Below, in pieces: positions 3,203 to 56,528 of a DNA stretch of 64,000 nt (its first letter is position 1; the number at the start of each line of letters is the position of its first letter). Under the pieces are notes generated by a model. That model searched no databases and was not told the DNA's origin. It saw only the letters and a program-made list of their open reading frames with translations. The translations under genes and the position numbers were made by a program. Source of the DNA: Kiritimatiellia bacterium (GTDB taxonomy: Bacteria; Verrucomicrobiota; Kiritimatiellia; JAAZAB01); assembly GCA_040767085.1 (NCBI GenBank), contig JAXGPF010000005.1, positions 256,001 to 320,000 on the forward strand. The letters are read 5' to 3'.

Positions 3203-3222
3203 AATATCCCCTCTTTATCATG

Positions 3223-6200: not shown

Positions 6201-7149
6201 AACGGGCATCCCGCCACGGGATGGATGGGGACGCGCGCAGATACAGCTGATTTATTTCAAGCATGCGGTCCGAGGGCGCATCCAGCGCCGGATAAGAAAA
6301 CAACCTTTGCATCGTTTCTTCCTGCGTGGATTCCGCGGGATTCATTTCCTGCGCCTGCAGCGTCAACCCGCCGAAAACCGCCGTCAACAGATTTTCCGTC
6401 CACCGCTCAATGATCAAACGCGGATGATTGTAAACCCGGGGACGCAGATTAAGCACCGGCATGGCGCCGAAGATCACCCGTCCGGCGCCCTCCACGCCGT
6501 CCTGCACAGCCATGGCGGCGCGCTCCGGGTAGTCGCGATCGCACATCAGCGTTTTGACTCCGGCGGCCCGATCGGCGGCCGTCAGCGTGAAATAAGCAAA
6601 ACCGGCCGATGGCGGCATGCGCTTGACGTCTTTGGCCATGATGGCGGCCAGATCGTTGGGGGTTTTCAACAACAAGTGATTTTCACCGGCAGCAAGCGTC
6701 ACGTGGTAGCGATCAGGCGGCACTGCCCGCGATGGCACGCGCACGCCCAATTTTTCCAGCGTCTTCGACGCCTGTCCGGCCAGCGGAAACGCCATATGAT
6801 GCAGATACAGCGTACCGCCGGCTTTGAAAAAAGACGCCAGCGCGGATTGGGTTTCCGGGCGCAAGAGGATATCGGAACGCGCCAGCATCCATAAAGGCGA
6901 TTGCATAGCCGCCTGTTCCCAGCCGGGGACAAGATCGTCAGGAGCGCAAGCGACAATTTGCAATCCGTACCGGGATGGAATCCATTCCGGGCTGCTCATA
7001 TGGTCGCCGGTCGTATCGGGATTGCCTTTTTGTCCGATGGCGGTTTGATAAACAAAAACGCTCTGCTTGAACTCATGCGCGTTTGTTCCGGCGCGGACCG
7101 ATCCCGCGGCCAGCAGTATTGCAAAATTTACGGCAAATGTTTTATTCAT
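3223..7149 (-). CDS. Large secreted glycoside-hydrolase-like protein with C-terminal beta-galactosidase trimerisation-like domain
   Basis: ATG 7149 after GGAGG; signal peptide MNKTFAVNFAILLAAGSVRA; C-terminal NLKEYPVLVLASYDAL..IQDYLQQGGCVLAEG..GKGRLLYLP. Confidence 0.6.
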   Translation of the reverse strand: MNKTFAVNFAILLAAGSVRAGTNAHEFKQSVFVYQTAIGQKGNPDTTGDHMSSPEWIPSRYGLQIVACAPDDLVPGWEQAAMQSPLWMLARSDILLRPETQSALASFFKAGGTLYLHHMAFPLAGQASKTLEKLGVRVPSRAVPPDRYHVTLAAGENHLLLKTPNDLAAIMAKDVKRMPPSAGFAYFTLTAADRAAGVKTLMCDRDYPERAAMAVQDGVEGAGRVIFGAMPVLNLRPRVYNHPRLIIERWTENLLTAVFGGLTLQAQEMNPAESTQEETMQRLFSYPALDAPSDRMLEINQLYLRASPSIPWRDARWTRRVPVLVFEPSGMDRAALPALVSIDLGGAASDSVRVATPWGEDVPFQLRPTSPNTNLVEVVFAADFLAHEHRLFFVYCGGAGEPPPDGKADLIVQEYDDRIELVNCRLRAVLRRAEPRLAYLAPRFNPGGNQLSDSHGQWPDGNGYPGSRIDVRGARITGCRVAERGPVRAVVEYTGDDGQPIISIMLYNGARSLEWRAHGSGLKITTDWMPGRGGYGHGAGTPPDILRWAKPDAVERFPCSRAGVLAQREAAASADGDWYALEDTQTGQTVGEIFDGCFPPSLRAVQSDMDLSVEAEWAALTNALRGAWLPLPEGSGWLPFPREARALNNPALVLTAPVQKREDVPPSARVPRLNRELIRGYHDGLAARGRPQPLYTGGATPWENLPHVLDWVRRRGGNYLSVYAAGPFWKSRWLDNADPRSEYLGKLLELAHARGMGVQWGGTGMLSKLGKTSGNSIFFGDKAPPGFVESQADLLRFREYAIRAAEEIAAYDLDMCWLFEETKYMIANPHDPAGHVREFGRQAFQAKYGMEPAAPARVESLADPAHHNTVFFEMDVYTDLVRDMTRAIKAVNPEIIVGDSDAASTIARLEGGPHDWELHAEFFDMQSMDIWGPPCNRFKWFRKLMRAMFDNRGSTGFLSMGLTRDLGTAHDHQMMWGLQSLIVFPPCRTDTWAEYYDEAKRNLQFYEYTGLGDLIARARPAKRAALLRDRAGMIEDIRQGRWVKAAGDYFGTQYDIRLQGIVYLHNFQCDLVMSKYFTMDNLKEYPVLVLASYDALADDMAAIIQDYLQQGGCVLAEGEVLNNPIMQGLAGVRRTGAPEEIQLSVAGAGAFNFSGKITAAEPDGAKVRLTSTAGRPVVFERNVGKGRLLYLPVWLSERLDDSGPAGFFRALVDDLAGDFVVQLTGEGADALDSSLLVSDGGLHVLGVYNPTDAAINVDLSWHDERIPPLLADFSHGVVKDFNGRAGLSIPPNRVIFWVLGGRQSLNLP

Positions 7150-8251
7150 TGGCAACCTCCGTTTTAGCCGCCAGAATCGACAAAAACGTGTTAAAAAACT
7201 GCCGGCCGTGTTCCCGCATATCCGCCGGCAGCCGGGTGTACCACGGGAACTCAGTCAGGATCGGCACGGTGCTGAAACGCTCCAGGCATAACCGCGGCAG
7301 GTAGCCGGCGGGCGCGGGCACCTGGTTGACATTCCAGAATTTCTGATCGCGCGACCGGTCGGGCGCCCGCGCGCGAAATTCATCCGCCAGGTCCGCGTCG
7401 CCCGCCCTGAACGAATCCGCCAGATGCGGCCCGGTATTATTATGCATATCCAAATAATACGCCGGACGCAAGCCGCAAATGAAATCCGCCAGGGCCCGGG
7501 CGCCGGCATCCGCCCCTGGCCGCACGGCCAGTTCCCGGCCGAAATTCACGCCGGTGGGCGCCAGGCAGCAATGGCCATGCGCCACCGCGTCGGGATTGAT
7601 CATCGGGAAAAAATGAAGATTTAACTTTGCCAAAATTTCCGCCACGCGATCCGGCTCCGCCGCGGCATATTCCAACCAGCCGGCCATGCAATAGGCGCCG
7701 GCGGTCTCGTACCCATGCGCCCGCGTGGTGACCGCCACGCGCCGGCCGGCCGGATTGCCGCAGCGCAAGCATGCCAGCGGCCGGCCTTCCGCGCTGCGCC
7801 CGATGTCCATCCGCTCGAACGGCGGCGCGCCGGCAAAGCGCTCCAGCAAGGCCAGGTAATCCCCGACGTCGAACTTCGGGGTGCAGCATAACAGATGCCG
7901 GCCGGGCGGAAGCACCACCTTCAAGACCGTCATGGCATTCGAGGATGAAATTGACAGCATGCGCCATGCTTTGCCCGAATCGTAGCCGATATACATGTAA
8001 TCGCGGCAATAATCGAACTTTGGCTCGGTCCAGGCGATTTTCAGCGGGACCAGCGCCGCGCGCGCGCCGGAATTGACTAATCCCACGTGCAGGTGAAAGG
8101 AATAGCCGGCCGGCGCGTTGGCTTCAAGCTGCTGCCGGATTTCGCAAACGCCATCCTGGTCAAACCGCACCATGCCGGCTGTTGCCGGGTTGGCATTGTC
8201 GAATCCAACTTCAATTGAGATTTCCGGCTGTTTGGGACTGGCGATCAGCAT
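7142..8251 (-). CDS. M14-family zinc carboxypeptidase-like protein
   Basis: IGRSAEGRPL, RAHGYETAG (HxxE), PMINPD, GVNFGR, LDMHN, TEFPW. Confidence 0.8.
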   Translation of the reverse strand: MLIASPKQPEISIEVGFDNANPATAGMVRFDQDGVCEIRQQLEANAPAGYSFHLHVGLVNSGARAALVPLKIAWTEPKFDYCRDYMYIGYDSGKAWRMLSISSSNAMTVLKVVLPPGRHLLCCTPKFDVGDYLALLERFAGAPPFERMDIGRSAEGRPLACLRCGNPAGRRVAVTTRAHGYETAGAYCMAGWLEYAAAEPDRVAEILAKLNLHFFPMINPDAVAHGHCCLAPTGVNFGRELAVRPGADAGARALADFICGLRPAYYLDMHNNTGPHLADSFRAGDADLADEFRARAPDRSRDQKFWNVNQVPAPAGYLPRLCLERFSTVPILTEFPWYTRLPADMREHGRQFFNTFLSILAAKTEVANE

Positions 8252-8268
8252 GCAAGCCTCATTCTGGA

Positions 8269-8303
8269 GTTCAAGGTTTTAGGTTCACGGTTCCGGGTTC
8301 GGT
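8269..8303. repeat. Degenerate heptamer tandem repeat (GTTCNNG-like x5) overlapping the DUF4838 gene stop
   Basis: gttcaag gttttag gttcacg gttccgg gttcggt. Confidence 0.55.
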
Positions 8304-10295
8304 ATTCAGCAGCAGAGTTTCCCCGACGATGTCCATCCACCGCCCCAGCATCCCGCGGCGCAGGCGCTGCTGGTATTGAAACCACATGGCGGCGATCCAA
8401 AAGCCATCGCGATGGGCATCCACCCATTTCATCAAACGCGAACGGCATTCAACCGCTCGTTCAATCAATGCTTGTTCCCCGCAAGACTGCGCCCATGCAC
8501 GCAGCTCCGATCCATCATCCGCCAGCACCGGCGGCGCGCCACGCTCAACCAAACCCCAGGCCGCCGCACAGGCTTCGGCATACAAATCAAGAAAAGCCAG
8601 TCCCTCCCGCACGAAACCGATGCGGGCGGCGATGGCTGCATCATCCCCGGCGGCAATCCAGGCGGCTTCCAGCTCGGCCCGGCGCGCCCGGCGCCATGCT
8701 TCCGGATACAACGCGGCCACGGCCGCCTCATGCCGCAGGCCGGTCTGTTCGAAATTTTCCCAACGTTCCTGGAATGCCATCCAGTATTTTTGCATGGCGC
8801 CGGCGGCCGGACCGAATCCCGCCCGGCAGTAATCTTCCAGGATGCCCTCAAAATCAAGCTCCGGATTCCACAACATGCGGGCGGCGGCATAATAGACCAG
8901 TCCGTTCGATGCGAAATCCAGGCCGGCCTGCGCCGCGAAATACCGGCAGCCGGCATGATGGTAATCGCGTATGCTCCGGCACAGGATCCGGGCAAAGCCG
9001 CGCGGCAGGCTGCCGTTGGCGCCGTTGACGAAGTAATCGTAAATGCCGCGCCGTTCCGCCACATCACCGAGCTGCGCGAGCAGGCGCCGGTCTTCCGCGG
9101 CGATCTTGGCGTCCGCGTGCAGGAAACTCATGGCGCAGAACTGGGCCATGACATTCGGATGCAGGCGCACGCCGCGGGGCGGCCGGCGGTAAACGCTGTA
9201 AACCAGCATCACCAGCAATTTATCGGGATAAACCCGCGCCACCTGTTCCGCCACGGCATTGGCAAACCGGAATATCCGCGCCGTGATGGCGGCGGTCGTA
9301 TTGGATGCGGTATCCGCCCCGGCCGACTCGTCGGTCAGTTTTTCCATGGCGGCCGTTTTGTCAGCCGCCCCGGCAGTTTCATCCTGCGCCCGGCAGGCCG
9401 GGCACTCGCAAAAGCCCGCGCCGTCGTTCAGGCTGATGCTGAAGGCATCCAGTTCCGGACGCGCGCGGAACTGCGCCATGACATATTCCGCCGTCAGGCG
9501 CACCACTGCCGGATTGCTGGTGCAGGGCTGGTTGCCATGCTTGCCGTCCCGGCGCGCCGTATCGCGCGCGCCGTTGATCAGGGCAAAATATTCCGGATGC
9601 GCGCGCCCGTGCGCCTCCGGCGGGCAGATCTGGCACCAGCGGTGCCCATCCGCTATGTTTAAGCCGCCCAGCCGGTTGCGCTGCTGCCAGAGTTCCAGCG
9701 CCGACAAGGCCGCCGGGCTTACCCCGCCAAATTTCATTTCCGCCAGCCACGGATCGCAGGCGCCGTAAAACGCCCCGCCCAGCCATAGCCGGCGCCAGGC
9801 CCAGGCCGGCCGATGCCGCGTTATGCCCGGCGGCCAGGCTACGTTGATTGCCGGCGGACACACGGTCCCGCAATCCCCGCCGGCGCGTCCGACACGGCCC
9901 GCACCGACCGCACTGCCGGAACGGCTCGTTCCCGGCCAGAGCCAGCGTACACCGAACGCCTGCTCCAGGAAATAATGCACGGCATGTCCCATGGCGGCGG
10001 CGGTGGAAGCGGCCAGGGAAACGCCATCGGCCTGCGCCGATATTTCAAACTCCTCGCGTTCCAGGACGCGTTCCGGGCAAAAACGCAACTCCAGGCGCAC
10101 CGGCATGGCCCGGCCGCCGTTCGACCAGGCAACCGGCTGCCCGAGGCATTTTTCGCAATGCAAAACCAGATCCGCGATGGCGGCGCGGATGGGTTCCGCA
10201 TCCTGCGGCGGCTGGACATCCAGCGCAAACCGGGCTTGTCCGTTTTGCACCAGCCAGATTGCTTGATCGGGATGACTCATAGGTTTGCATTGCAT
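8271..10295 (-). CDS. DUF4838 domain-containing protein (start may be ATG 10280)
   Basis: FLEQAFGVRWLWPG, HPEYFALING, QPCTSNPAV, SISLNDGAGFCECPAC, YAAARMLWNP..LEDYCRAGFGPAA. Confidence 0.75.
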   Translation of the reverse strand: MQCKPMSHPDQAIWLVQNGQARFALDVQPPQDAEPIRAAIADLVLHCEKCLGQPVAWSNGGRAMPVRLELRFCPERVLEREEFEISAQADGVSLAASTAAAMGHAVHYFLEQAFGVRWLWPGTSRSGSAVGAGRVGRAGGDCGTVCPPAINVAWPPGITRHRPAWAWRRLWLGGAFYGACDPWLAEMKFGGVSPAALSALELWQQRNRLGGLNIADGHRWCQICPPEAHGRAHPEYFALINGARDTARRDGKHGNQPCTSNPAVVRLTAEYVMAQFRARPELDAFSISLNDGAGFCECPACRAQDETAGAADKTAAMEKLTDESAGADTASNTTAAITARIFRFANAVAEQVARVYPDKLLVMLVYSVYRRPPRGVRLHPNVMAQFCAMSFLHADAKIAAEDRRLLAQLGDVAERRGIYDYFVNGANGSLPRGFARILCRSIRDYHHAGCRYFAAQAGLDFASNGLVYYAAARMLWNPELDFEGILEDYCRAGFGPAAGAMQKYWMAFQERWENFEQTGLRHEAAVAALYPEAWRRARRAELEAAWIAAGDDAAIAARIGFVREGLAFLDLYAEACAAAWGLVERGAPPVLADDGSELRAWAQSCGEQALIERAVECRSRLMKWVDAHRDGFWIAAMWFQYQQRLRRGMLGRWMDIVGETLLLNTEPGTVNLKP

Positions 10296-11175: not shown

Positions 11176-12996
11176 TCAGGGCAATTCCACCAGCTTGAAA
11201 TTATCCAGCAGCAATTGCGCGTCGCCTTCGGGCATTTTGAAGATCAGGTAGAAATTTAATTCATCCGAAGATCCCTTGCGCACCTTGGGGTCCTTGGGGG
11301 TCTTGCCGACGCCGGGGCAGGTGAATTTCAGGACATTTTTCTGCCAGCTCCGGGAAGTCCGGATGTTGCCGGTGAAATCGTAACGCTCCCAACGGGTCGG
11401 GATGGTGCCGGAGCCGGGGAAAGTCTCCCAAGCCGACATCAGCCAGACCGCCTGCTTGGACGGCATCACGGAAGAGAATGAAAATTCGTACTTGTGCCCG
11501 ATCTTCATTTTCAAGGCCGCTTTGTTCAAGCCGAACCAGCGGCCGCCCTGGACGTTGATATTATGCGGCGCCGTTTCGGAACGGGTCCAACCCAGGTATT
11601 GATTGACATAACGGAAATAAACAAACCTTTCCCCGTGCTCGGCGGCGACCGCCGGCACGCCCGGCTGGAGCACGACGGATTTTTCGGCGCTCAGGAGCAC
11701 CCCGGCGTTGCAGATCATGCCCAGCCAGTCCCAATGGCCGAAAATCCAGCGGCTGATGCTGTGTTCGCGGCCGATCCCCGGCCACCAGCCCTTAGGCGCG
11801 AGCAAATCCTTTTCGGTATTGATGCCCTTAATGGCCTCCACGGCGGGGAAACTGGGTTCGGTCTTGGACCCCTTGTTTAAAGACAAGTAAATGCGGCCAT
11901 CCGTATTGCCCAGCACCAGGTCGAACAACCCATCCTCGTTCCAATCGCAGGGGAAGGCATTGGACATCTTGGAGAATAGATTCTTGCCGCCGACGGCCAG
12001 GAAACCGTCGAATTCCATGGCCGCGGGCGCGAGCGTGCTGCGGATGGCGGCCACCATATTCCGGCCCTCCACAGCCTCCTGGGTGCCCTTATACTTGCGG
12101 ATTTCGCCGGTGCGCGTGCCGACGATCAAATCGTCAATGCCGTCGCCGTTGTAGTCCACCACCGCCGGCGTCAAGTGTTCAAACCCTTCGCCGAAGGCCA
12201 AGAAAAATACCTGTTCGGGGATGAAATTCGGGCGGGAGCGCGAGCCGGTATTATACAGGATGCGAACGCTGTTGGCCGAGTAAGTTCCCTCGCCCAGCAG
12301 CAGATCCAGGGAGCCTTTTTTACGCCAATCCGCGGCCCACGGACTCATGTAATTGCCGAACAAGAGCGGGCCCTTCCCCAGCATGAGCGGCGGCAGGCGG
12401 TCGCCCGAGCGGTCCACCTCGTAGAGCGGCATCACGTAGCGCGGCACGCCCATACTGCGGGTGAAGCGCGGCGCGCGAACGGTGCCGAAATTTTCCAGGA
12501 CCGCGACATCGCCGTAGAAAGTCCCCACCAGCACATCCAGGTCGCGGTCGCCGTCCCAATCCACCACGTGAATTTTCGAGCCCCAGCCCAGGTAGGTCGG
12601 CACGAACTGGCCCTGCGTGAATTTGGGCGCGCCTTTTTCGCCGGAATTGAGGTAAATCCAGAGGAAACCGTAAGTGTCCGCCACCAGCAGGTCGGGCAGG
12701 CCGTCATCGTTGATATCGGCTACATTAGGGAAGGACGCCTGCGGGGTGTTGACCATCCGCCCGACATCGTTCAGCACCGGCGAACTCGCGACGTGGACGC
12801 GCAGATAATTCTGATCGTCCACGCCGTCCCAGTAATTCCCCAGCGGCGTTGTCGCGTCGCCCTGCGCCTCGGCGGGGAACAGGTTGGCCTGCTGGGCACG
12901 GGCGGCGCCGGCGCAGCCCAGCGCCAGCCACAACACCATGCCCAGCCACCGATTGCCATAAGTTTTCATCGTCATGCCATTCATCGTCGTTTTCAT
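11176..12996 (-). CDS. Secreted FG-GAP/VCBS repeat protein with C-terminal beta-rich domain
   Basis: Signal peptide; five FG-GAP-like repeats (ADINDDGLPDLLV, VDWDGDRDLDVLVG, ADWRKKGSLDLLLG, VDYNGDGIDDLIVG, CDWNEDGLFDLVLG); ATGA overlap with upstream gene. Confidence 0.85.
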   Translation of the reverse strand: MKTTMNGMTMKTYGNRWLGMVLWLALGCAGAARAQQANLFPAEAQGDATTPLGNYWDGVDDQNYLRVHVASSPVLNDVGRMVNTPQASFPNVADINDDGLPDLLVADTYGFLWIYLNSGEKGAPKFTQGQFVPTYLGWGSKIHVVDWDGDRDLDVLVGTFYGDVAVLENFGTVRAPRFTRSMGVPRYVMPLYEVDRSGDRLPPLMLGKGPLLFGNYMSPWAADWRKKGSLDLLLGEGTYSANSVRILYNTGSRSRPNFIPEQVFFLAFGEGFEHLTPAVVDYNGDGIDDLIVGTRTGEIRKYKGTQEAVEGRNMVAAIRSTLAPAAMEFDGFLAVGGKNLFSKMSNAFPCDWNEDGLFDLVLGNTDGRIYLSLNKGSKTEPSFPAVEAIKGINTEKDLLAPKGWWPGIGREHSISRWIFGHWDWLGMICNAGVLLSAEKSVVLQPGVPAVAAEHGERFVYFRYVNQYLGWTRSETAPHNINVQGGRWFGLNKAALKMKIGHKYEFSFSSVMPSKQAVWLMSAWETFPGSGTIPTRWERYDFTGNIRTSRSWQKNVLKFTCPGVGKTPKDPKVRKGSSDELNFYLIFKMPEGDAQLLLDNFKLVELP

Positions 12997-14366
12997 TGCC
13001 GTGCCCCTGTGGGCGGCCGGCCGGGCGCAGCCGGCGCCGCGGATGCCGGGGGGGCGGACGCGCCGGCAGCGGCTGGCTGCTTGAGGCGCGGGTTATTGGC
13101 CGGCAAGCCCTTGGGCAGCAGCCGGAAATGCTTCTGGTAGCGGGTCAGCAGGTGAACCACCACGTTGATGCCGAAACGGAAGGAGTTGTTAACCGTCTCG
13201 TCGTTGATGTTGCGGTAGATGATCCCGTTTTCCTCGCGCGGCGACGCCAGGTGGGGCCCGTAAACATGCCGCCAGCTCGGGGCTTCCATGGTGCCGACGT
13301 TCACCAAGCCCCACTCGATCTTGTTCTGGCTGTTCAGCCGGGCTTCCCATAAATGGCCGTAACCGTTGAGCGTGTACAGCACGGCCATCTCGGAGCCGAT
13401 GTTGATCAACTCCACCGGTTCCTGGTAAAAATTCATGCCGGCCGGCAGGCCGATATTCTGGAAAAAAGTCTTGAACAGTTCATGGTCCGTGCCCGGCACC
13501 ACTTCGAATTCGCGGTCGGGCATGACGCGCTTCATCTCGCGCCGGAACGCCACGTCAAAGCGCGACCGCCGGCCGGCGAGCGAACTATCGGCCCAGACCG
13601 CGCCGCCCAGGGTCAGGTAATCCCGGAGGTTCTTCACCTCCGACTCCAACAGCGTGAAATCCTTGTGCCCGGTGAGATACACAAACGGCGGGCGCAGGAC
13701 GAAAAGCTGGTCGGTGCCCACATCCAGCGTTTCCGGATACAGGTTGGCATCCAGGCGGTCGCGGGACCAGGCGCGAATCTGCAGCATCAGATTTTGCAGG
13801 GAGGAAGGATTGCAATTCCAGTCGCCGCCGCGGTACTTGGCCTGAAAGATGGTGAATTTCGCGCGTGTCGCCCGGCCCTGGTTCTGCACATCCCAGACTT
13901 TCTGAAAATCGCGCACATTGGCGAAGCGCTGCTGGCGCGCCTGCTCGATTTTACGGCTCATGTCCGTCTCGATCTTGATTTCCGCAACCTTGACCACAGG
14001 CGCCACCGGCGGCGTTTCCGTGCGCACGAAAGTGGAAGGCGCATCCACGGTGATCCGCACCACCGGGGTCTTGGTGGCGGTAACCTTGACTTCCTTGTTT
14101 TCAACCTTTTCCGGCGGCGGGCGCGGCGGGGGCGGCGTGGGCGGCGGCAGCACCAGCAACTGCTCCACGCCTTCGAAAGCGCCGCGGGTGGCCAGGTAGG
14201 TGGTAATTTTATAACCGCCGAAGATCAGTAAAACCGAAAGGTACAAGATCAGCGAAATCAGGAAATAGCGCGAGCGCAGCAGGGCCAGCACTATCACCCA
14301 GACGCCCCGGCGGGCGGCAACTCGCTCTTCCAGTCTCTCGATATTCTGTTCGATCTCGATCGCCAT
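12993..14366 (-). CDS. Membrane-anchored DUF4159 domain protein with TonB-like Pro-rich linker
   Basis: N-terminal TM (YFLISLILYLSVLLIFGGY), PPPTPPPPRPPPEK linker, DUF4159-like motifs GDWNCNPSSL..PFVYLTGH..LRDYLTLGG..FRREMKRV..GINVVVHLLT. Confidence 0.75.
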   Translation of the reverse strand: MAIEIEQNIERLEERVAARRGVWVIVLALLRSRYFLISLILYLSVLLIFGGYKITTYLATRGAFEGVEQLLVLPPPTPPPPRPPPEKVENKEVKVTATKTPVVRITVDAPSTFVRTETPPVAPVVKVAEIKIETDMSRKIEQARQQRFANVRDFQKVWDVQNQGRATRAKFTIFQAKYRGGDWNCNPSSLQNLMLQIRAWSRDRLDANLYPETLDVGTDQLFVLRPPFVYLTGHKDFTLLESEVKNLRDYLTLGGAVWADSSLAGRRSRFDVAFRREMKRVMPDREFEVVPGTDHELFKTFFQNIGLPAGMNFYQEPVELINIGSEMAVLYTLNGYGHLWEARLNSQNKIEWGLVNVGTMEAPSWRHVYGPHLASPREENGIIYRNINDETVNNSFRFGINVVVHLLTRYQKHFRLLPKGLPANNPRLKQPAAAGASAPPASAAPAAPGRPPTGARQ

Positions 14367-14381
14367 AACGTATTCCGCCCG

Positions 14382-14810
14382 CTATTCGTACTGGTTGGCA
14401 AAGAAAGAAAGGTTTTTCACACCGGTCGCCGCACAGGCGTTGAGGACGTCCACGATGCGCTGCTGGCGCACTTTGGGCTGCGGGTGGATGACCACCGGCT
14501 GCTTGTCGCCGAAGAGCTGCAGGCATTGCTCGAGCTTGGCGCGCACGGTCGGCAAATCGCGGTCGCCCGGGGTGTCCATGGGAATGTCGTTGCAGAACAC
14601 CTGGTTGTTTTCCGCGATGGCGAGCGTCAATTCCACCGGCAGGGCCTGCGGCGTCTGGCTGACGCCGCCCGGCACCATCAATCCCAGGTATTTTTCCTCG
14701 ATTTTCACCTGGGCGGCCGAGATGAAATACAACAGCAGCAGGAACACGCAGTCAATCATCGGTCCCATCTGCAATTCGGCTTCTTCGTCTTTTTCTTCCT
14801 TGAAACGCAT
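14382..14810 (-). CDS. exbD: Biopolymer transporter ExbD/TolR-family protein
   Basis: MGPMIDCVFLLLLYF TM helix with conserved Asp; C-terminal VVIHP..IVDVLNAC. Confidence 0.9.
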   Translation of the reverse strand: MRFKEEKDEEAELQMGPMIDCVFLLLLYFISAAQVKIEEKYLGLMVPGGVSQTPQALPVELTLAIAENNQVFCNDIPMDTPGDRDLPTVRAKLEQCLQLFGDKQPVVIHPQPKVRQQRIVDVLNACAATGVKNLSFFANQYE

Positions 14811-14826
14811 ATACCCGTCCCCGCCT

Positions 14827-15291
14827 TTACAGGTCCACCGGCAATTCCTTGTCCAGCGTCGAAAACATCATGTTGGGGATGTTGGCCTGCGCCACCGCCG
14901 CCATGACCTGCTGGGTGTATTCGTACGGCACGCGCCAATCGGCGCGGATTACCACCCGGAAATTCTTGCTGGCGTTCTGCAACGAGCTGGCCTTGATTAA
15001 CGGCACCAGGTCGCGCGCGTCCCAGAGCTCATGCGGGCCGGCCTTGTAAATGGCCTGCTGCTGATTGTCGTCCCACTCGACATCCACGATGAACCGGCCG
15101 GACTCGTCCTTCTCCAGGATGCCGGATTTCGCCCGGGGCAGCACGACATCCTTGCTGATGCGCTCGGCGTCCAGCGTGCTGACGCTCACGAAATACATCA
15201 GCAGCAGGAAGGTGCAGTCAATCATCGGCCCCATGGCGATGGAGCAAGGCGGATCGTCTTCCGTCGACCATTTTGGTTCTTTTCTGGCCAT
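14827..15291 (-). CDS. exbD: Biopolymer transporter ExbD/TolR-family protein (second paralog)
   Basis: MGPMIDCTFLLLMYF; VVIRADWRVPYEYTQQVMAA. Confidence 0.9.
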   Translation of the reverse strand: MARKEPKWSTEDDPPCSIAMGPMIDCTFLLLMYFVSVSTLDAERISKDVVLPRAKSGILEKDESGRFIVDVEWDDNQQQAIYKAGPHELWDARDLVPLIKASSLQNASKNFRVVIRADWRVPYEYTQQVMAAVAQANIPNMMFSTLDKELPVDL

Positions 15292-15316
15292 GGATTCCCC
15301 CCCTCCCGCTAGTCCG

Positions 15317-16198
15317 TCATTCCCAATCCATTTCCGTCTTGCAGTACGGGCAGGCTTTCACGCCGACCTTGATTTCCTTTTTGCAATTGGGGCAGGGCAC
15401 CTTATCCCCCGCCGGCGCCGACGCCGGCGCCGCGTCCGCCGCCGGAGCGTCGGTCACGATTGTCAGATCTTCCGGCAAACTGGCGAAATCCACCGACTCC
15501 AGCACTTCGATAAAAGCGTCCTGAACGGAGGCCATGACTTTTTTCAAGCGCGCCAGCAGGATGAAATAGGCCATCATACAGGGAATGGCGATGACCAGTC
15601 CGCCGTAGGTGGTGATCAAGGCCTCGCCGATATCGCCGGCGAGCTTGGTGGGATCGCCCACGGCGCCGCCGAAGGCCATCGCGTTAAACGCGCCGATCAT
15701 ACCGGAAATCGTGCCGAACAAACCCATCATCGGCGCCACCCCGGCATTCAAGGAGAGGTAAGAGAGCTTGATCTTGAAATCGGCGCTGATGTTGGCGGCC
15801 GCTTCGATGGCGGTTTCTTCCACCGCGTCCCGCCCTTTGGGCAATTTTGACAGCGCCGCCGCCAGCATGCGTCCCAGCGGGCTGGGACTGTCGGCGGCCG
15901 CGCGCCAGGCCTTCTGGTAATCGCTGACGGAGAGGGCTTCGCGCACCTGGCGCAGAACGCTATCCGGGCAAAACACCTTTTTGCGCATGCGCACCAGCAC
16001 TTCAATCAAAACGGCCAGGGCCCAGATCGCCAGCAGCGAGAGAGGGATCATGGTGATGCCGCCCTGCTTGAAATAGTCCATGAAAGTTGTCGGCCGCCCG
16101 TCCGCCACCTCCTGCGCCCAAGCCGCCCATGGGCACGCCAGGCAGGCCAAACCCAGCAGTCCGAACAGCATCCAAGACCGTGCATAACGTTTCTGCAT
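15317..16198 (-). CDS. exbB: MotA/TolQ/ExbB proton-channel protein with C-terminal zinc-ribbon
   Basis: APMMGLFGTISGMIGAF and IGEALITTYGGLVIAIP; tail CPNC..CPYC; AAGGAG RBS. Confidence 0.9.
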   Translation of the reverse strand: MQKRYARSWMLFGLLGLACLACPWAAWAQEVADGRPTTFMDYFKQGGITMIPLSLLAIWALAVLIEVLVRMRKKVFCPDSVLRQVREALSVSDYQKAWRAAADSPSPLGRMLAAALSKLPKGRDAVEETAIEAAANISADFKIKLSYLSLNAGVAPMMGLFGTISGMIGAFNAMAFGGAVGDPTKLAGDIGEALITTYGGLVIAIPCMMAYFILLARLKKVMASVQDAFIEVLESVDFASLPEDLTIVTDAPAADAAPASAPAGDKVPCPNCKKEIKVGVKACPYCKTEMDWE

Positions 16199-16228
16199 GA
16201 CGATATCTCCTTGCTTATTAATGGTAAA

Positions 16229-17122
16229 TCACGGCTGGTCCGCGGCGGCCGCTTCCCGGGCTCTGGCGCCGGCCGCCTGTCGGACCGGCTCCGCCTGCTT
16301 GGCGAGGGCATGGTCGGGATAATTGTCGTTCAACTCATTCAACAGCCGCTCCGCCTTTTCGAATTGTTCCAGCGAGTTGAACACCAAACCGGCGCGGTAA
16401 AGCGCTTCGGGGTACGCTTTCGGGTCCGGGTACAGGGCGATTACCCGCAGGTAGGCGTCCAATGCTTCCGGCAATTGCTGCTGCGCTTCCAAGGCCCGGC
16501 CGATGCCGAGGTATGCGCCGGCGGCGAAGACGACCTGTTCGACCGGCGGCTTCAGTTGCGCGTCAAACGGCGCCGCCAGTTCGCGCAAATCCGCCAGGGC
16601 TTTTTCGTAATTTTTGTTCAGCAGTTCGATCTCCGCCATCCCCAGCCGGGCGTCCACCGCCAGGTCGGACTCCGGATACGCCTTCAGAAAGGCCTCAAAC
16701 GCCCTGGCGGCGGCGGTCAAATCCTGCCCTTGCAGGCAGGTCCGGCCGAAATACAGCAGGCCTTTCATTGCCCAATCCACGTCCAACCCCTGGTATTGAA
16801 AGACCACCCGGTCCAGATTCTGCCGGGCCTCGCGAATATTGCCGTGCTCATAGGCGGCAATCCCGCGGGTGACGGCCGGCGGCGGCTCCACCCGCATCTG
16901 CGTTACCGCCGCGCGGGGAATGGTAATCACGCCCTTGCCCGGCAGTTCGAACTGGATGCCGTCGGCGGTCACCGCCTTGACGGTGCCCCGGTAGTTCTGC
17001 TGGCGGGTGGCTACGATGTCCTCCGCCCGCGCGCAGTTAATGCCGGCAGCCAACAGGCCGGCTGCCGCCAGGATGGCGGTGATACCCGCGTGTAAAAATC
17101 TGTCCCGGTTAACGAATCGCAT
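16229..17122 (-). CDS. Exported TPR protein (CpoB/YbgF-like repeats) with small N-terminal beta domain
   Basis: Signal peptide; FEAFLKAYPESDLAVDARLGMAE, YLRVIALYP, LNDNYPDHALA. Confidence 0.75.
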   Translation of the reverse strand: MRFVNRDRFLHAGITAILAAAGLLAAGINCARAEDIVATRQQNYRGTVKAVTADGIQFELPGKGVITIPRAAVTQMRVEPPPAVTRGIAAYEHGNIREARQNLDRVVFQYQGLDVDWAMKGLLYFGRTCLQGQDLTAAARAFEAFLKAYPESDLAVDARLGMAEIELLNKNYEKALADLRELAAPFDAQLKPPVEQVVFAAGAYLGIGRALEAQQQLPEALDAYLRVIALYPDPKAYPEALYRAGLVFNSLEQFEKAERLLNELNDNYPDHALAKQAEPVRQAAGARAREAAAADQP

Positions 17123-17160
17123 AGTCAGCCTTCTCCGGAAATTGAAAATTCCCGGTGCTT

Positions 17161-17189
17161 ACCCTAATCCAGCCGCCGGTTTCTGTCAA
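17161..17189 (-). promoter_or_regulatory. Candidate sigma70 promoter for the TPR-exbB-exbD operon
   Basis: Minus strand TTGACA (17189-17184), 17-bp spacer, TAGGGT (17166-17161). Confidence 0.5.
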
Positions 17190-17332
17190 ACAGAAAAAAA
17201 ACATCCGAAAAAAATTCTCGCGCTGCGGCTGGAAATGTGTATAAATAAAGACGCCGTTCAGGCTGCCGGCAACGCTCATGCGCGCCCGACCGCCGGGCGG
17301 TCCCCGACAAACGCCAATTGAGGAGAGCATCC

Positions 17333-20300
17333 ATGCATTATTACAAGCAAACCGGCAAATGCCTTTGCGCAGCCATCGTGGCCGCCACGGCGCTGGCCGC
17401 CTACGGGCAGACTTTTGACGAACTGGCCGCCGCCGGCGAAGACGCGGCGAAAGCCGGCCGCTACCCCGAAGCCATCCGGCTCTACGAAAAAATCGTGGCC
17501 GAGGGCAAGACCTACGAAAACATCATGTTCATCAAGTTCGAACTGGGCTGGGCGTATTACCTGGTGGGAAGTTTTGATAAGGCTATCCCGCTCTTCCTGG
17601 ACCTTTCCGGCGTCCGCGCGCCGAGCGAGGGCATGAAACAGCAGTCCATCTTCCTGATGGCCGAGTGCCACGCCCGCCTGGCCGACAGCCAGCCGGAAGG
17701 ATCGGCCGAACGCAAAAAAAGCATCGAGGAATCGCTGAAACTGCATACCCAGTTTCAGAAGGATTATCCCAAAAGCCCCTTCATTCCCCAGTCGCTTTAC
17801 GGACGCGCCTTCGCCTACTACCTGGACGGACAGTTGGATAAGGCGGAAACCGACCTGAAAACCGTGATCACCGACCACCGCACCTCCTCCACGGCGATCG
17901 ACGCCTATTACCTGCTGGCCAGCGTCTTCAGTCAGCAGGGCCTGGCGCTGGTGAAAGCCGGCAAGCGGGATGCAGCCAAGCCGTTTCTCGACAAGGCCCG
18001 CGAACTGTTCAACCAACTGGCCAAGCAGCAAAACAACCTGGCCATGGCCAACGACAGCACCTTCGCGCTCGCGGAGACCTGGTTCTCCGCCGGGCTTTAC
18101 CTGGAAGCCATCCAATATTTCCGCGAAGTCCGTTCCAAGATGGAAGTGCAGCAGAGCCTGCGGAAATCGCTGGAGGAACTGCAAACCAAGCTCGCGGCGC
18201 AGATGGCCAAGCGGGAGGATACCACCCAGACCAAAACCGAGCAAAACCGGCTCGCGGCGCAATTGGCGGCCGTTAACGAAAGTCCCGACCGCATGATTTC
18301 CGCCTACCTGCGCATCAGCGAATCCTTTTACCGCATGCAGCATTATGACGAAGTCCGCATCATCTGCCGGCACCTGATGAACTTCACCGAGGATGTCCTG
18401 AAAAAGCAGGCCAACATGCTGCTGCTCAACACTTACATCGAGGAGCGCCAGGCGGCGGATGCCGCGCGTGAATTCACCGAATTCCAGCAATCCTTCGGAT
18501 TGGACCCCATGGCGGAAAGCGTCAGCCTGGCCATCGGGCAGCTTTTCCTGGCGCGGGACGAACTGGAACCCGCCCTGACGCATCTGACCCGCAGCGTGGA
18601 GGATTATCCCGAGGCCAAAACCTTCGAGGATGCCCTGTATTTGAAATTCACCGTCGAATACATGCTGACCCGCCATGCCGACGTCAAGGCCACCGCCGAC
18701 CAATACGCCGCCAAGTTCGCCAAGGGCAAGTACCTGCCGCTGGCGCTGTATTACAAGGGCATGAGCCAGGCGGCTCTGGGCGAATCCGAGGAAGGACTCG
18801 CCACGCTGACCGACGTGCTAACCCGTTTCTCGGAAAAAACCGAGGATTTCGACAACGTGGATGAAGTCGCCCTGCAAAAAGGCGTCCTGCTGATGCAGTT
18901 GCAGAAAACCGACGAAGCCATCAAGCATTTCCAGCAGTACATCGAGCAATACAAGGAGAGCGCCTACCGCCCCTACGCCCTGTATCAACTGGGCATGGCG
19001 CTGAACAACGCCGACCGGTTTGAAGAAGCGCAGACCTTCCTGCGCCAGGCGGCCAAGGAACATCCGGAACACGCCATCGCCCCCGCCGCCATGTTCCAGG
19101 TCGGGGTCATGCACTTCCAGAAGGAACAATTTGAAGAAATGGCCGCGGTCATGCGCGAAATCCTGCAGATGTTCCCCGACCGCCCGATCGCCACCGACGC
19201 TTATTTCTGGCTCGGATTCATCGCCAAAAAGGACGGCGCGTTTGACGATGCCGTCGCCAACTTCGCTAAAGCCGTGGAAAGCAACCCCAGCTCCGAGCGC
19301 GCCCCCGAATGCCTGCTTTTCGCCGGCCAGGCGCTCAACGAGAAAGCCGACAAGATGGGCGTGCCCGCGGTGCTGCCGGAAGAGCAGCGCCGGATATACC
19401 GCGAAACCCGCCTGGCGGCCGCGCGCAAGTTCGAGGACATGCTGGCGCAATACCCCGCCGCCGAGAAGACGCTGGAAGCCATCCCCGGCATTGCCGCCAG
19501 CATCTTCGAGCTGGTGCGCAGCAAGCAGATGCCCCCCGAGGAGGCGGTCGCCTGGTTCAAAGAAAGCCGCGCCCGGCACCCGGACAACGCCGAATTGCAG
19601 GCGCAGTTGCTTTTCAGCTACGGCAGCTACTTCATGAAAAACCGCGAACAGGCCCAGGCGCTCGCAGTCTTCAAGGAATCCATGGCGCTCCAGCCCAACG
19701 TGCGGCTTTCGCCGGAAATGCTCACCGATTACGCTGAAGCCTTGAAGGACGCTGGCAGCCTGGCCGACGCCGAGAAGATTTACAACAAGATTATCGCCGA
19801 CTTCGCCGATGCTCCGCTGGCCCTGGCGCCGGCCTGGTTCGGCCTGGCCGATATCAAGTATCTTGAGAAAAACTACGACACCGCCCGCGAATATTTCGAA
19901 AAAGTCCTGGGGGATTATCCCTGGTTCAAGCGCGGCAAGCAGGGCCGGGTCAAGCTGGCGGCCATCTACGAAATCAACGAGAATTACGAGGAAGCGGAAA
20001 AACGGTTCACGGAAGTCTTCAACGAGGAAACCGGCGAACCGCGCCTGGCCGCCTCCCTGGGCGTCGCGCGCTGCCAACTGGCCCGGGCGGAACGCCTGAA
20101 ACGCGCCGGAGACCAGTCCTGGCAGGGCATCGTCAAGGTGGCTTCCGAAAATCTGACCAAGGTCACCGTGCTCTTCGAGGCCTATCCCGAATACGTCTCC
20201 GACGCCTTCCTGCAACTCGGCCGCGCCTGCGAGATGGTGGGCGATGTCAACCAGGCCAAGGAAATGTACAAGCGCGTCGTGGACAATTACGCCAAGTACC

Positions 20301-20347
20301 CGGCCGCCAAACCCGCCGGCGAACAACTCCGGCGCCTGGGCGGGTGA
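17333..20347 (+). CDS. Large exported tetratricopeptide-repeat protein (~1000 aa)
   Basis: ATG 17333 after GAGGAG; signal peptide; continuous TPR-like repeats (FQKDYPKSPFIPQSLYGRA, YIEQYKESAYRPYALYQLG, VVDNYAKYPAA). Confidence 0.88.
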   Translation: MHYYKQTGKCLCAAIVAATALAAYGQTFDELAAAGEDAAKAGRYPEAIRLYEKIVAEGKTYENIMFIKFELGWAYYLVGSFDKAIPLFLDLSGVRAPSEGMKQQSIFLMAECHARLADSQPEGSAERKKSIEESLKLHTQFQKDYPKSPFIPQSLYGRAFAYYLDGQLDKAETDLKTVITDHRTSSTAIDAYYLLASVFSQQGLALVKAGKRDAAKPFLDKARELFNQLAKQQNNLAMANDSTFALAETWFSAGLYLEAIQYFREVRSKMEVQQSLRKSLEELQTKLAAQMAKREDTTQTKTEQNRLAAQLAAVNESPDRMISAYLRISESFYRMQHYDEVRIICRHLMNFTEDVLKKQANMLLLNTYIEERQAADAAREFTEFQQSFGLDPMAESVSLAIGQLFLARDELEPALTHLTRSVEDYPEAKTFEDALYLKFTVEYMLTRHADVKATADQYAAKFAKGKYLPLALYYKGMSQAALGESEEGLATLTDVLTRFSEKTEDFDNVDEVALQKGVLLMQLQKTDEAIKHFQQYIEQYKESAYRPYALYQLGMALNNADRFEEAQTFLRQAAKEHPEHAIAPAAMFQVGVMHFQKEQFEEMAAVMREILQMFPDRPIATDAYFWLGFIAKKDGAFDDAVANFAKAVESNPSSERAPECLLFAGQALNEKADKMGVPAVLPEEQRRIYRETRLAAARKFEDMLAQYPAAEKTLEAIPGIAASIFELVRSKQMPPEEAVAWFKESRARHPDNAELQAQLLFSYGSYFMKNREQAQALAVFKESMALQPNVRLSPEMLTDYAEALKDAGSLADAEKIYNKIIADFADAPLALAPAWFGLADIKYLEKNYDTAREYFEKVLGDYPWFKRGKQGRVKLAAIYEINENYEEAEKRFTEVFNEETGEPRLAASLGVARCQLARAERLKRAGDQSWQGIVKVASENLTKVTVLFEAYPEYVSDAFLQLGRACEMVGDVNQAKEMYKRVVDNYAKYPAAKPAGEQLRRLGG

Positions 20348-20370
20348 CAATTCGACGCCGCGCCGGCCGG

Positions 20371-20877
20371 TCAGCGCAATTCAATTGTCATGGCGACTTC
20401 CGGGCAGGTAAACGGGGAATCGTACTTGGTGCAATTGACGCACCCCATGTAAAGCTTGTGCATCAGCTTTTCCTTGGGCACCTCGCGGAAGCCGAACCGG
20501 CGGAAATATTCCGGCGAAAAGGTCAGCACCACGAGCTGCGCCGGGTGATAAGCCCGCACGTGGCGGATGATCGCCCGCACCAGGGCTTCCCCCACCCCGC
20601 GCCGCTGGAATTTTCGGGAAACGGCCACGGATTTAATCTCGATCGAAGGTTCCGTCACATGGCCGATTTCCGGCAGAATCTGCCAGGACGCCGTCCCGGC
20701 CAGCCGGCCGCCGACTTCCGCCACCAGGAACCGATCGATGTTCTGGACGATGTCGCTCACCGAACGCGCCAGCACCTCGCGCGGATGTTCCTTGATCAGC
20801 TGGTAGATTTCCGCCGCATCGCCGAATCCCGCCGGGCGGATTCGGACAGCGGCTGGTTTGTTTTTGCGCGCCGGCAT
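20371..20877 (-). CDS. GNAT N-acetyltransferase, short N-acetylglutamate synthase (ArgA)-like
   Basis: EIKSVAV..FQRRGVGEALV, VLTFSPEYFRRFGF, C-terminal LMHKLYMGCVNC..CPEVAM; GGAGG RBS. Confidence 0.75.
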   Translation of the reverse strand: MPARKNKPAAVRIRPAGFGDAAEIYQLIKEHPREVLARSVSDIVQNIDRFLVAEVGGRLAGTASWQILPEIGHVTEPSIEIKSVAVSRKFQRRGVGEALVRAIIRHVRAYHPAQLVVLTFSPEYFRRFGFREVPKEKLMHKLYMGCVNCTKYDSPFTCPEVAMTIELR

Positions 20878-21063
20878 ATTTCAGTCCTCCCGCATCCTGT
20901 TCCGTATCCCATCCCGCGCCGCCGGACCGCGGCGGCTCAATTCCACGGGTAACATAACAAGTCTGCCGGCGGATGCCAGTAAATTTTATCGCGGGACCGC
21001 AACCATCGGCCCAACCGGGGCGTGTTTAACTTGAACCTGAATCCGTGACGGAATTTTATGCTG

Positions 21064-35447: not shown

Positions 35448-35463
35448 AGCCGGCCGTTTAGGG

Positions 35464-35491
35464 TTGACTTATTTGTCGCTCCGATTAGTAT
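35464..35491 (+). promoter_or_regulatory. Candidate sigma70 promoter for gnd
   Basis: TTGACT, 16 bp, TAGTAT immediately after the right DR; AGGAG RBS downstream. Confidence 0.5.
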
Positions 35492-35538
35492 GTATTTTTC
35501 GCTTTTTGGCAGAATAACCACGACAGGAGAAAATCAAA

Positions 35539-54150: not shown

Positions 54151-54185
54151 ACAGAACAAATTCCAAAACTCACATGTCAGATGAT

Positions 54186-54255
54186 TTAAGGTGTTATTAG
54201 GGTGTTAGGGTTTTAAGGTGTTAGGGTTTTAGGGTTTTAATGTGTTAGGGTGTTA
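54186..54255 (+). repeat. Octamer tandem repeat TTAGGGT(G/T), telomere-like, between rnfC and rnfD
   Basis: ttagggtg ttagggtt ttaaggtg ttagggtt ttagggtt ttaatgtg ttagggtg (54197-54252) plus one upstream unit. Confidence 0.9.
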
Positions 54256-54320
54256 CGCCGGGACAAATTTCAAAACTAACATTCAGGAGTCAGAATACTG
54301 GCTGCTGTCTCCTGAACACT

Positions 54321-54346: not shown

Positions 54347-54359
54347 GACTTAAAACGCA

Positions 54360-56527: not shown

Positions 56528-56528
56528 A

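Follow-up and report, generated by a model that had tools for sequence, protein, structure and literature searches.

The gene cluster and its setting

The 64,000-nucleotide stretch of DNA analysed here, hereafter the window, is part of contig JAXGPF010000005.1 of a Kiritimatiellia bacterium (assembly GCA_040767085.1), and it carries a compact cluster of genes for an ExbB/ExbD-type motor together with a DUF4159 protein, an FG-GAP protein and two tetratricopeptide repeat (TPR) proteins. Its closest relatives are metagenome-assembled genomes (MAGs) of Kiritimatiellia, with locus L001 at 95% protein identity. According to open reading frame (ORF) listing and Pfam searches, six minus-strand genes at 11176-17122 encode, in operon order, a TPR protein, ExbB, two ExbD paralogues, the DUF4159 protein and the FG-GAP protein, with gaps from the TPR gene onwards of 30, 25, 16 and 15 base pairs (bp) and a 4-bp ATGA overlap between the DUF4159 and FG-GAP genes that was read directly in the sequence. 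A preliminary description of this DNA had reported these six packed, co-oriented genes (gaps of at most 30 bp, one ATGA overlap), a divergent gene for an exported TPR protein of ~1000 amino acids (aa) and a conserved Asp ("PMID") in both ExbD helices, and each of these points was borne out, the TPR gene lying at 17334-20347 with a signal-like N-terminus and the motif G-P-M-I-D-C standing in the transmembrane (TM) helix of both ExbD paralogues. The features of the cluster are:

11176..12996, minus strand: FG-GAP protein, exported, 606 aa (Pfam FG-GAP_3 E 1.4e-21, FG-GAP E 3.6e-10)
12993..14366, minus strand: DUF4159 protein, candidate transducer of TonB/TolA style, 457 aa (Pfam DUF4159 E 3.2e-28)
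14382..14810, minus strand: ExbD/TolR paralogue b (ExbD-b), 142 aa (Pfam ExbD E 3.9e-18)
14827..15291, minus strand: ExbD/TolR paralogue a (ExbD-a), 154 aa (Pfam ExbD E 5e-15)
15317..16198, minus strand: ExbB/TolQ-type stator subunit, 293 aa (Pfam MotA_ExbB E 4.8e-24)
16229..17122, minus strand: short TPR protein (TPR297), exported, 297 aa, first gene of the operon (Pfam TPR families)
17123..17333, no strand: divergent intergenic region, AT-rich, 211 bp, presumed site of both promoters (sequence)
17334..20347, plus strand: long TPR protein, exported, ~1004 aa (Pfam TPR families)

The long TPR gene was listed at 17318-20347, and the ATG at 17334, which lies behind GAGGAG, is a likelier start than the TTG at 17318. 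A scan for the sigma-70 consensus found no site in 17123-17333, and promoter and terminator counts across the region were at shuffle level and uninformative. Beyond the long TPR gene lies a minus-strand GNAT acetyltransferase gene (20371-20877, Acetyltransf_1 E 1.2e-11), a conserved convergent neighbour in Kiritimatiellia-like loci; a plus-strand ORF at 20344-20952 (202 aa), considered as an eighth member of the cluster, was rejected as its antisense shadow. Among 59 ORFs searched in the window (17 at E<=0.01 and 42 at E<=1e-5), none had a TonB_C, TolA, Pal/OmpA or TonB-dependent receptor domain; a canonical TonB or TolA may be encoded elsewhere in the genome. The cluster had been called receptor-less, a term that stands for the window and the inspected flanks of +/-9 kb and extends no further.

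A stator with two ExbD paralogues

Membership in the stator family is clear for all three motor subunits, with ExbB scoring 85 bits against PF01618 (cut-off 22.9), and the ExbD paralogues 66.2 and 56.1 bits against PF02472 (cut-off 25.4). The TM Asp motif was found in 31/31 homologues listed for ExbD-b and in 22 of the 25 listed for ExbD-a, the pattern not being found in the TM segments of L017, L020 and L040, whose starts are possibly mis-set. Homology thus shows a stator of the proton-conducting ExbB/ExbD type, a family with a 5:2 architecture. Assignment to ExbB/ExbD or TolQ/TolR is not possible because all four equivalog model scores fall below their cut-offs: ExbB reached 59.3 bits in the NCBIfam tolQ model (cut-off 221) and 33.2 bits in the exbB model (cut-off 206), and the ExbD paralogues reached 37.2 and 26.2 bits in tolR (cut-off 127) and ~16 bits in the ExbD models (cut-offs 153-216).

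ExbB starts with a signal-like segment and ends in a cytoplasmic zinc ribbon with two CxxC motifs and a terminal D-W-E (Zn_ribbon_3, 22.7 bits, under the cut-off of 27). Of 28 ExbB homologues listed, 19 have two CxxC motifs within the last 50 aa, among them the distant L040 and L076; the motifs are absent from L036, L041, L062, L067 and L068 and from ordinary ExbB genes near solitary DUF4159 genes. The combination of this ribbon with a terminal (D/E)-W-E (window 15317-15450, L040, L076 and 16 other loci) is unusual for ExbB/TolQ.

Anatomy of the DUF4159 protein

Assignment of the candidate transducer to DUF4159 (PF13709) is secure (99.1 bits, cut-off 25.9, E 3.2e-28), and its layout was read from alignments of 24 (A1) and 79 (A2) relatives, with which an AlphaFold model (predicted local distance difference test score, pLDDT, 82.8) agrees. 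A short cytoplasmic helix is followed by a single TM helix (~33-61) with the motif S38-x3-Y42, a conserved GxF...LVLPP segment, a poly-Pro stretch at 73-85 (residues 73-84 being P-P-P-T-P-P-P-P-R-P-P-P, conserved in A1) that makes a proline-rich spacer like that of TonB, a low-confidence or disordered linker of about 70 residues reaching to ~134, a helix at 135-158, and an alpha/beta head at ~165-430. The TM helix, the poly-Pro linker and the head are conserved over the 79 relatives.

The TM motif has the spacing of the SxxxH ("SHLS") motif, which PMC10907165 describes as common to the TM segments of TonB and TolA. In the 79-sequence alignment the S38 column holds S 45 times, A 33 times and T once, and the Y42 column holds Y 47 times, H 32 times and nothing else, the window having Tyr. 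Every member outside the Kiritimatiellia clade has [S/A]xxxH, and His stands at the Y42 position in all seven distant cluster-linked members (L036, L040, L041, L062, L067, L068 and L076). For comparison, the canonical TonB_C protein encoded in L052, of the same phylum, reads A-V-I-I-H within its TM helix, and a Pro-rich linker comes next. PMC10907165 also places the ExbD-binding D-box of TonB (Q-P-I-S-V-T-M-V-T-P-A-D) between the anchor and the polyproline rod, and it is this position that the L-L-V-L-P-P-P segment of the DUF4159 protein takes.

For the head, the sole strong structural match was 4i66 (Hoch_4089; profile E 3.4e-17, Foldseek E 3.9e-11, TM-score 0.85 on the target), an uncharacterised 209-residue single chain with the same domain that gives no functional lead; beyond it, weak GATase1/ThuA-like matches only were found. 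The ESM Atlas returned DUF4159 clusters only (Verrucomicrobiota, Latescibacterota) and no new lead, and the database names among the DUF4159 relatives listed are solely "DUF4159 domain-containing protein" or "hypothetical". Other membrane modules carry the head too: it follows a BlaR1/M56 membrane domain in P0119 from the protein database and ends proteins of 1100-1300 aa with an anti-sigma zf-HC2 and several vWA domains (P0241-P0244), and it is fused with a beta-helix/NosD module in P0245. This distribution marks the head as a portable module, presumably for binding in the periplasm. TonB_C likewise occurs fused to M56 domains. A fusion of the head is also listed at L021 3-1769, beside those in P0241-P0245 and P0119.

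Predicted contact between the head and the FG-GAP protein

Behind its signal peptide the FG-GAP protein is modelled (pLDDT 82.1; predicted template modelling score, pTM, 0.81) as a beta-propeller, in which Asp-rich FG-GAP loops recur, and a C-terminal beta-sandwich (~433-605). Foldseek returned generic propeller-plus-sandwich matches only (GH43 with CBM6, integrin alpha, BBSome; TMq <=0.29), and the C-terminal 186 aa, which hold the sandwich, had no Pfam match at E<=10 and matched no carbohydrate-binding family. An interpretation of the N- and C-terminal strands as a jelly roll of CBM4_9 type was dropped, given the absence of Pfam support at E<=10 and the generic Foldseek matches. Because the signal peptide has no conserved lipobox, the protein is probably soluble in the periplasm.

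The preliminary description had the DUF4159 protein hand force over to the FG-GAP protein and proposed multimer modelling of the pair. We modelled the head (130-440) with the mature FG-GAP protein (36-606) in three runs, with three controls, using our own alignments. The median interface score (ipSAE) was 0.61 (runs 0.72, 0.58 and 0.61) and the best control 0.00; 116 of 157 solved complexes reach that mark, as against 2 of 215 mismatched pairs, a calibration that holds roughly, own alignments having been used. Contacts agreed between runs at 71% or more, with a partner pLDDT of at least 77, and there was no solved complex of the two families to copy, the sole related PDB entry being 4i66. As a statement of model confidence, the score supports binding of the FG-GAP protein by the head.

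On the DUF4159 side the predicted interface consists of loop 262-272, within the invariant S-R-F-D...R-R-E block, H234-K235 and 311-317, and on the FG-GAP side of loop 238-243 (T-Y-S-A-N-S), 268-273 and residues 527-534 of the beta-sandwich, so that the most conserved motifs of both families fall within it. Conserved columns are enriched at the interface, making up 9 of 31 residues in the FG-GAP protein (4.3 expected, p 0.018) and 12 of 36 in the DUF4159 protein (7.8 expected, p 0.058). With a complex model past its controls and, as described below, the tightest synteny of any pair in the cluster (33/72), the proposed hand-over is supported.

Conservation of the cluster across phyla

A pattern scan with one genome per species gave at least 612 matching stretches, 521 of them encoding a relative of the DUF4159 protein, and the best 80 were taken, corresponding to 77 loci. 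Window proteins were searched against all ORFs of these loci (phmmer, E<=1e-3), and neighbours were counted for the 80 DUF4159 genes, the adjacency in L022 being missed in the counts owing to an over-extended ORF. An ExbD gene adjoined 27 of the 71 DUF4159 genes with at least 600 bp upstream, ExbB lay within 2.5 kb of 25/60, and an FG-GAP gene adjoined 33 of the 72 with at least 1.2 kb downstream. Where both flanks were readable (n=55), 20 genes stood in a full cluster, 6 had the FG-GAP gene only, 26 were solitary and 3 were partial, the last being two tandem copies in L003 together with L052; Pfam scans of L026, L046, L052 and L024 confirmed no adjoining motor.

The full set is found in Kiritimatiellia-like loci, with a divergent long TPR gene, and also in L041, L062 and three MAGs labelled Nitrospirota (L036), Auribacterota (L067) and UBP3 (L068). 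In these five loci the long TPR gene lies upstream and the order is fully co-oriented (long TPR, short TPR, ExbB, ExbD, ExbD, DUF4159, FG-GAP), and two Verrucomicrobiota loci (L040, L076) have the full set without the long TPR gene. ExbD-b followed by DUF4159 at gaps of ~15 bp is an order kept across phyla. The arrangement is more than chance: the same order recurs in 20 of the 55 related loci with both flanks readable, which come from several phyla. The synteny that the preliminary description proposed to survey is thus conserved, yet it is not universal, with 26/55 genes solitary.

A tree was built by a quick method with SH-aLRT support and a midpoint root for drawing, from 57 rows (the window and 56 of the 80 genes, leaving out 24 with short flanks or partial genes). 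Full-cluster members fall to either side of the midpoint root, the solitary genes of Chthoniobacterales group in a single nested clade, and the extra copies L021 and L024 are placed in the tree next to the cluster copies of their own MAGs (L016, L018). The three synteny states require 5 changes on the tree against a shuffled mean of 23.6, and none of 200 shuffles was as low. Because the full cluster stands on both sides of the family tree, we infer that the linkage is ancestral and was lost several times, as with TonB paralogues. Duplications were also found: L003 6564-10458, from a MAG labelled Lentisphaerae, reads ExbD-b, DUF4159, ExbD-b, DUF4159, FG-GAP, a tandem duplication of ExbD-b and DUF4159, and paralogues or tandem copies of the transducer within one genome occur in L021, L024, L047 and L066.

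The many solitary genes bear on a different explanation, namely that the cluster is a mere operon neighbourhood in which ExbB and the ExbDs serve an ordinary TonB elsewhere, and the DUF4159 and FG-GAP proteins are an independent, membrane-anchored periplasmic pair, enzyme or sensor, co-transcribed with the motor by chance. Besides the 26 solitary genes and the 6 with FG-GAP only, the GATase1/ThuA-like fold and the many invariant charged residues of the head could suggest an enzyme, its occurrence in anti-sigma/vWA and M56 architectures suggests sensing, and upstream of the solitary DUF4159 gene of L052, at a distance of ~2.6 kb, ExbB is encoded behind a canonical TonB_C gene. Against this explanation, the order of ExbD-b and DUF4159 with its short gaps is kept across phyla, the two genes were duplicated as a unit in L003, the solitary members, like unlinked TonB paralogues, have retained their Pro-rich linker and a TM helix bearing [S/A]xxxH, and the linkage looks ancestral. 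We consider a mere neighbourhood unlikely.

In three Chthoniobacterales loci (L052 4601-6384, L054 2338-6171, L063 1805-5657) a TonB_C/ExbB or an ExbB/ExbD/long-TPR cluster lies 2-3 kb from a solitary DUF4159 gene, separated from it by unrelated genes for methylmalonyl-CoA mutase, polyprenyl synthetase and a HEAT-repeat protein; these nearby motor clusters may be left over from the ancestral linkage or stand there by coincidence. The flanks of the distant clusters are of housekeeping character: L036 has CoaE (dephospho-CoA kinase), Rho and PrfA, and both L040 and L076 have a PpiD/SurA-like gene. In L036 (6032-9030, MAG labelled Nitrospirota) these three genes come after the cluster, and a 2026 ISME J paper names dephospho-CoA kinase and Rho as neighbours of the MUL2 pilus locus of Akkermansiaceae; that the two loci have these neighbours in common is possibly a coincidence.

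The TPR proteins, and comparison with Ton, Tol-Pal and Agl-Glt

The short TPR protein begins with a PH-like beta domain (bPH_11, E 4e-4, under the cut-off), followed by TPR repeats of CpoB/YbgF type. It scored 74.6 bits in TIGR02795 (YbgF; cut-off 90.1), a model that all 16 of 16 orthologues match (best E 5.8e-27) and in which the L036 orthologue, at 94.6 bits, passes the cut-off; in the model of full-length CpoB (PRK10803) the score was 23 against a cut-off of 383. The long TPR protein reaches 210 bits in TIGR02795 by repetition, in 8 stretches, and a profile of the short protein matches proteins of ~1000 aa in 5-18 stretches. Because of these repeated matches, we read the long protein as a concatenation of about eight modules of the short protein's kind.

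The Ton system has in common with the cluster an ExbB/ExbD stator with the TM Asp, a transducer gene directly after exbD, a transducer with a single N-terminal TM helix, a candidate counterpart of the SxxxH motif in [S/A]xxx[H/Y], a hydrophobic segment and poly-Pro at the D-box position and a linker spanning the periplasm, and transducer paralogues that lie apart from the motor in the same genome. It differs in that the head of the cluster's protein is DUF4159 (~260 aa, GATase1/ThuA-like alpha/beta) rather than the small TonB_C (PF03544), that Tyr replaces His in this clade, that there are two distinct ExbD paralogues and no TonB-dependent receptor nearby, and that the head is predicted to bind a propeller protein, soluble in the periplasm, where TonB binds a Ton box.

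With Tol-Pal the cluster has in common the succession of motor, anchor protein and periplasmic beta-propeller along with TPR proteins resembling CpoB/YbgF, the predicted binding of the propeller by the head, and the best sub-threshold hidden Markov model scores, which are those of tolQ and tolR. The tol operon itself has the order tolQ-tolR-tolA-tolB-(pal)-cpoB. On this basis the set might be a counterpart of Tol-Pal, with ExbB as TolQ, the ExbDs as TolR, DUF4159 as TolA, FG-GAP as TolB and the TPR proteins as CpoB, serving outer-membrane attachment and constriction and no import. The gene order mirrors that of the tol operon; tolQ (59.3) scores above exbB (33.2) and tolR (26-37) above ExbD (~16 bits); and the matches of the TPR297 orthologues to the YbgF/CpoB model, with L036 past its cut-off, the predicted contact with a periplasmic propeller and the housekeeping flanks of the distant clusters (L036, L040, L076) all speak for it. 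However, the tolQ and tolR scores lie far under the cut-offs of 221 and 127, no TolA, PD40/TolB or OmpA/Pal domains were found in the window and no Pal/OmpA-type lipoprotein in the window or the inspected flanks. By Pfam and Foldseek the FG-GAP protein is no TolB homologue, its propeller being of FG-GAP type with an added beta-sandwich, and the linker is Pro-rich as in TonB, not a long helix as in TolA domain II. The TPR proteins, moreover, lack the coiled coil of CpoB and carry a beta domain or a chain of eight modules instead, and transducer paralogues and tandem copies (L021, L024, L047, L066) are more typical of TonB. A Tol-Pal counterpart is hence a possible though doubtful interpretation.

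The preliminary description had also pointed to myxobacterial Agl-Glt gliding, whose motor in Myxococcus likewise combines a TolQ-like subunit, two TolR-like subunits and TPR accessory proteins. A surface-motility or secretion motor of Agl-Glt or GldLM kind is favoured by this stator composition with its TPR partners, and by weak NCBIfam matches of the relatives' TPR proteins to GltC (E 7e-5) and GltE (1.6e-10). These matches are at TPR level only and far under the cut-offs of 450 and 225, the cluster has no Glt homologues, and neither the window nor the inspected flanks showed Glt, Gld, secretin or adhesin genes, which makes a motor of this kind very improbable. The Glt transducers GltG and GltJ carry TonB_C domains, of which there are none in this cluster.

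The MUL1 locus of Akkermansia and glycan uptake

One locus with a partly similar motor, MUL1 of Akkermansia muciniphila, has been functionally characterised and is the nearest such system. According to published accounts, mul1A (Amuc_0544) is a mucin transport gene whose loss lowers colonisation (10.1101/2025.02.20.639370), and MUL1 "resembles the Sus system", its synteny being absent in aquatic Akkermansiaceae (ISME J 2026). In the PMC11480725 supplement the products of Amuc_0543, 0544 and 0547 are given as hypothetical, those of Amuc_0546, Amuc_0548 and Amuc_0549 as ExbD/TolR, MotA/TolQ/ExbB and endonuclease III, and a small gene without a name stands between Amuc_0544 and Amuc_0546. MUL1 and the cluster are alike in combining an ExbB/ExbD motor with exported proteins of no known family in a bacterium of the Planctomycetes-Verrucomicrobia-Chlamydiae (PVC) group, with no obvious receptor gene, and the first gene of the cluster gives a weak signal for the Mul1B family. 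That signal is 19.5 bits in the Mul1B model (NF052542) over residues 18-226, which include the non-TPR domain, far under the cut-off of 75, so that the protein is not a member of NF052542; 5 of the 16 orthologues match at E<=0.01 (best E 8.2e-6). The DUF4159, FG-GAP and long TPR proteins had no match to the Mul1 models of NCBIfam, and the absence of a DUF4159 or FG-GAP annotation among Amuc_0543-0548, as named in the supplement, sets the two loci apart by product names only. No bridge from TPR297 to Mul1B was found among the best 150 of 80,919 profile matches (E<=1e-3, 1.84 billion representatives), which are mostly multi-TPR proteins of ~1000 aa, with 16 of the 150 at 248-309 aa. Among 120 matches listed of 898 to the DUF4159 protein of L040, none was named Akkermansia, a result that is uninformative either way. 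Taken together, the matches suggest a remote relation of one subunit, the short TPR protein, to Mul1B and nothing more.

From this comparison the cluster might be read as a MUL1-like engine for the uptake of polymers or glycans in PVC bacteria without SusC/D, with the FG-GAP protein and its beta-sandwich as a substrate-binding adaptor. In its favour are the TonB-like rod and the transducer paralogues, the mucin transport role of mul1A with its ExbD and ExbB neighbours (Amuc_0546 and Amuc_0548), the Mul1B matches of the TPR297 orthologues including the non-TPR N-terminal domain, a window rich in glycan-degrading genes (fucosidase, DUF4838, CBM9), and the single DUF4159 fusion with beta-helix/NosD (P0245). 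Weighing on the other side are the low Mul1B score, the lack of Mul1 matches for the remaining proteins, the Amuc_0543-0548 table (in which the hypothetical proteins are known by name only), the absence of MUL1 synteny in aquatic Akkermansiaceae, the C-terminal domain of the FG-GAP protein, which matches no carbohydrate-binding family, and the position of the cluster outside polysaccharide utilisation loci in distant relatives. We regard an uptake engine of this kind as somewhat unlikely.

Proposed mechanism

We consider it moderately probable that the set forms an energised envelope machine of Ton/Tol type with a different transducer. In such a machine ExbB, as homology shows, forms the proton channel, both ExbD paralogues carry the essential TM Asp, and ExbD-a and ExbD-b may form a heterodimeric plug of the stator, in keeping with the known 5:2 architecture of the family. 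The DUF4159 protein, judged by its anatomy, motif, operon position and co-duplication, would be the force transducer: its TM helix with [S/A]xxx[H/Y] would dock on the stator, its hydrophobic segment and poly-Pro would leave the membrane at the position of the TonB D-box, where the transducer may be gripped near the membrane, and the ~70-residue linker would carry the head across the periplasm. There the head is predicted to bind the exported propeller/beta-sandwich FG-GAP protein through the most conserved loops of both families, and the exported CpoB-like TPR proteins are putative periplasmic scaffolds. Two outputs, upkeep of the outer membrane as in Tol-Pal or capture and import of polymers as for MUL1, appear about equally likely.

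Several observations count against this proposal. Throughout the clade of the window, the window included, Tyr stands in place of the His critical in TonB; the D-box-like segment, whose binding to ExbD is putative, varies in the 24-relative alignment once outside Kiritimatiellia; and the N-terminal 135 aa of the DUF4159 protein have no Pfam match at E<=10. No likeness of the head to TonB_C or TolA-III was seen in sequence or fold (Pfam E<=0.01, Foldseek, PDB profile search). On the output side, neither the window nor the inspected flanks yielded an outer-membrane component, and no conserved lipobox was seen in the FG-GAP family alignment; the contact between head and propeller is a model confidence and no measurement. 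Lastly, 26/55 relatives have neither motor nor FG-GAP gene alongside, and 6 more have no motor.

The TonB/TolA role that the preliminary description had given to the DUF4159 protein thus stands as regards its place in the operon, which is that of tonB or tolA in exbBD and tolQR operons, single TM helix, Pro-rich linker, periplasmic head, [S/A]xxx[H/Y] and co-duplication with ExbD-b in L003, and falls short in that the head is not homologous to TonB_C or TolA-III and the window has Tyr for His. The description had also called the set undescribed. In the full texts searched, subscription papers and bioRxiv supplements lying outside the search, DUF4159, PF13709, Hoch_4089 and 4I66 occur only in the Pfam database paper, FG-GAP is not mentioned together with ExbD, and Kiritimatiell* together with ExbD has an unrelated mention only. 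The set is absent from this literature, while the partly similar MUL1 locus of Akkermansia has been characterised functionally. The set is real, conserved and apparently an undescribed variant of the Ton/Tol envelope motors.

An extended reading, to which we attach little likelihood, would make the set a third branch beside Ton and Tol, in which the DUF4159 head of a TonB-like rod would pull on an FG-GAP adaptor, soluble and resembling a lectin, in place of a Ton box, so that large glycans are drawn into the periplasm. Such a SusC/D-independent glycan engine ("selfish uptake") of PVC bacteria would be spread over Verrucomicrobiota/Kiritimatiellia and several candidate phyla, with MUL1 as a reduced or diverged relative.

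Other features of the window

A minus-strand run of large exported genes related to glycans lies at 26-10295 and encodes a CBM9-bearing protein of 1058 aa, a protein of 1310 aa with weak GH42M/GLMA matches, an M14 peptidase-like protein and a DUF4838 protein, and a GH29 alpha-L-fucosidase is encoded at 49309-51072 (minus strand). The organism looks like a polysaccharide degrader, and an Rnf operon at 51876-57281 points to an anaerobe. At 34001-36000 the G+C content is 0.56, lower than that of the window (~0.63); this block, whose plus-strand ORF at 34193-35374 has an integrase core (rve, E 1.3e-7), is probably an insertion sequence. At 25880-29293 (plus strand) a protein of 1137 aa combines an N-terminal Ser/Thr protein kinase domain (E 8.5e-47) with leucine-rich repeats. 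In the 355-aa ORF at 61338-62405 (minus strand) ribosomal protein S15 is confined to the last 81 residues, and translation probably begins far downstream of the listed start.

Implications

Ton and Tol are the two textbook routes by which energy of the inner membrane reaches the outer envelope of Gram-negative bacteria, and a conserved third type of transducer would widen this picture, its new elements being the head, which is of another kind, and a propeller partner that is soluble. It would also give DUF4159, together with a large FG-GAP family, a functional context for the first time. For the Kiritimatiellota and Verrucomicrobiota, which are major degraders of sulfated and mucin glycans, the cluster is a candidate for how these bacteria may energise their envelope, or the uptake of polymers, without the SusC/D of Bacteroidota.

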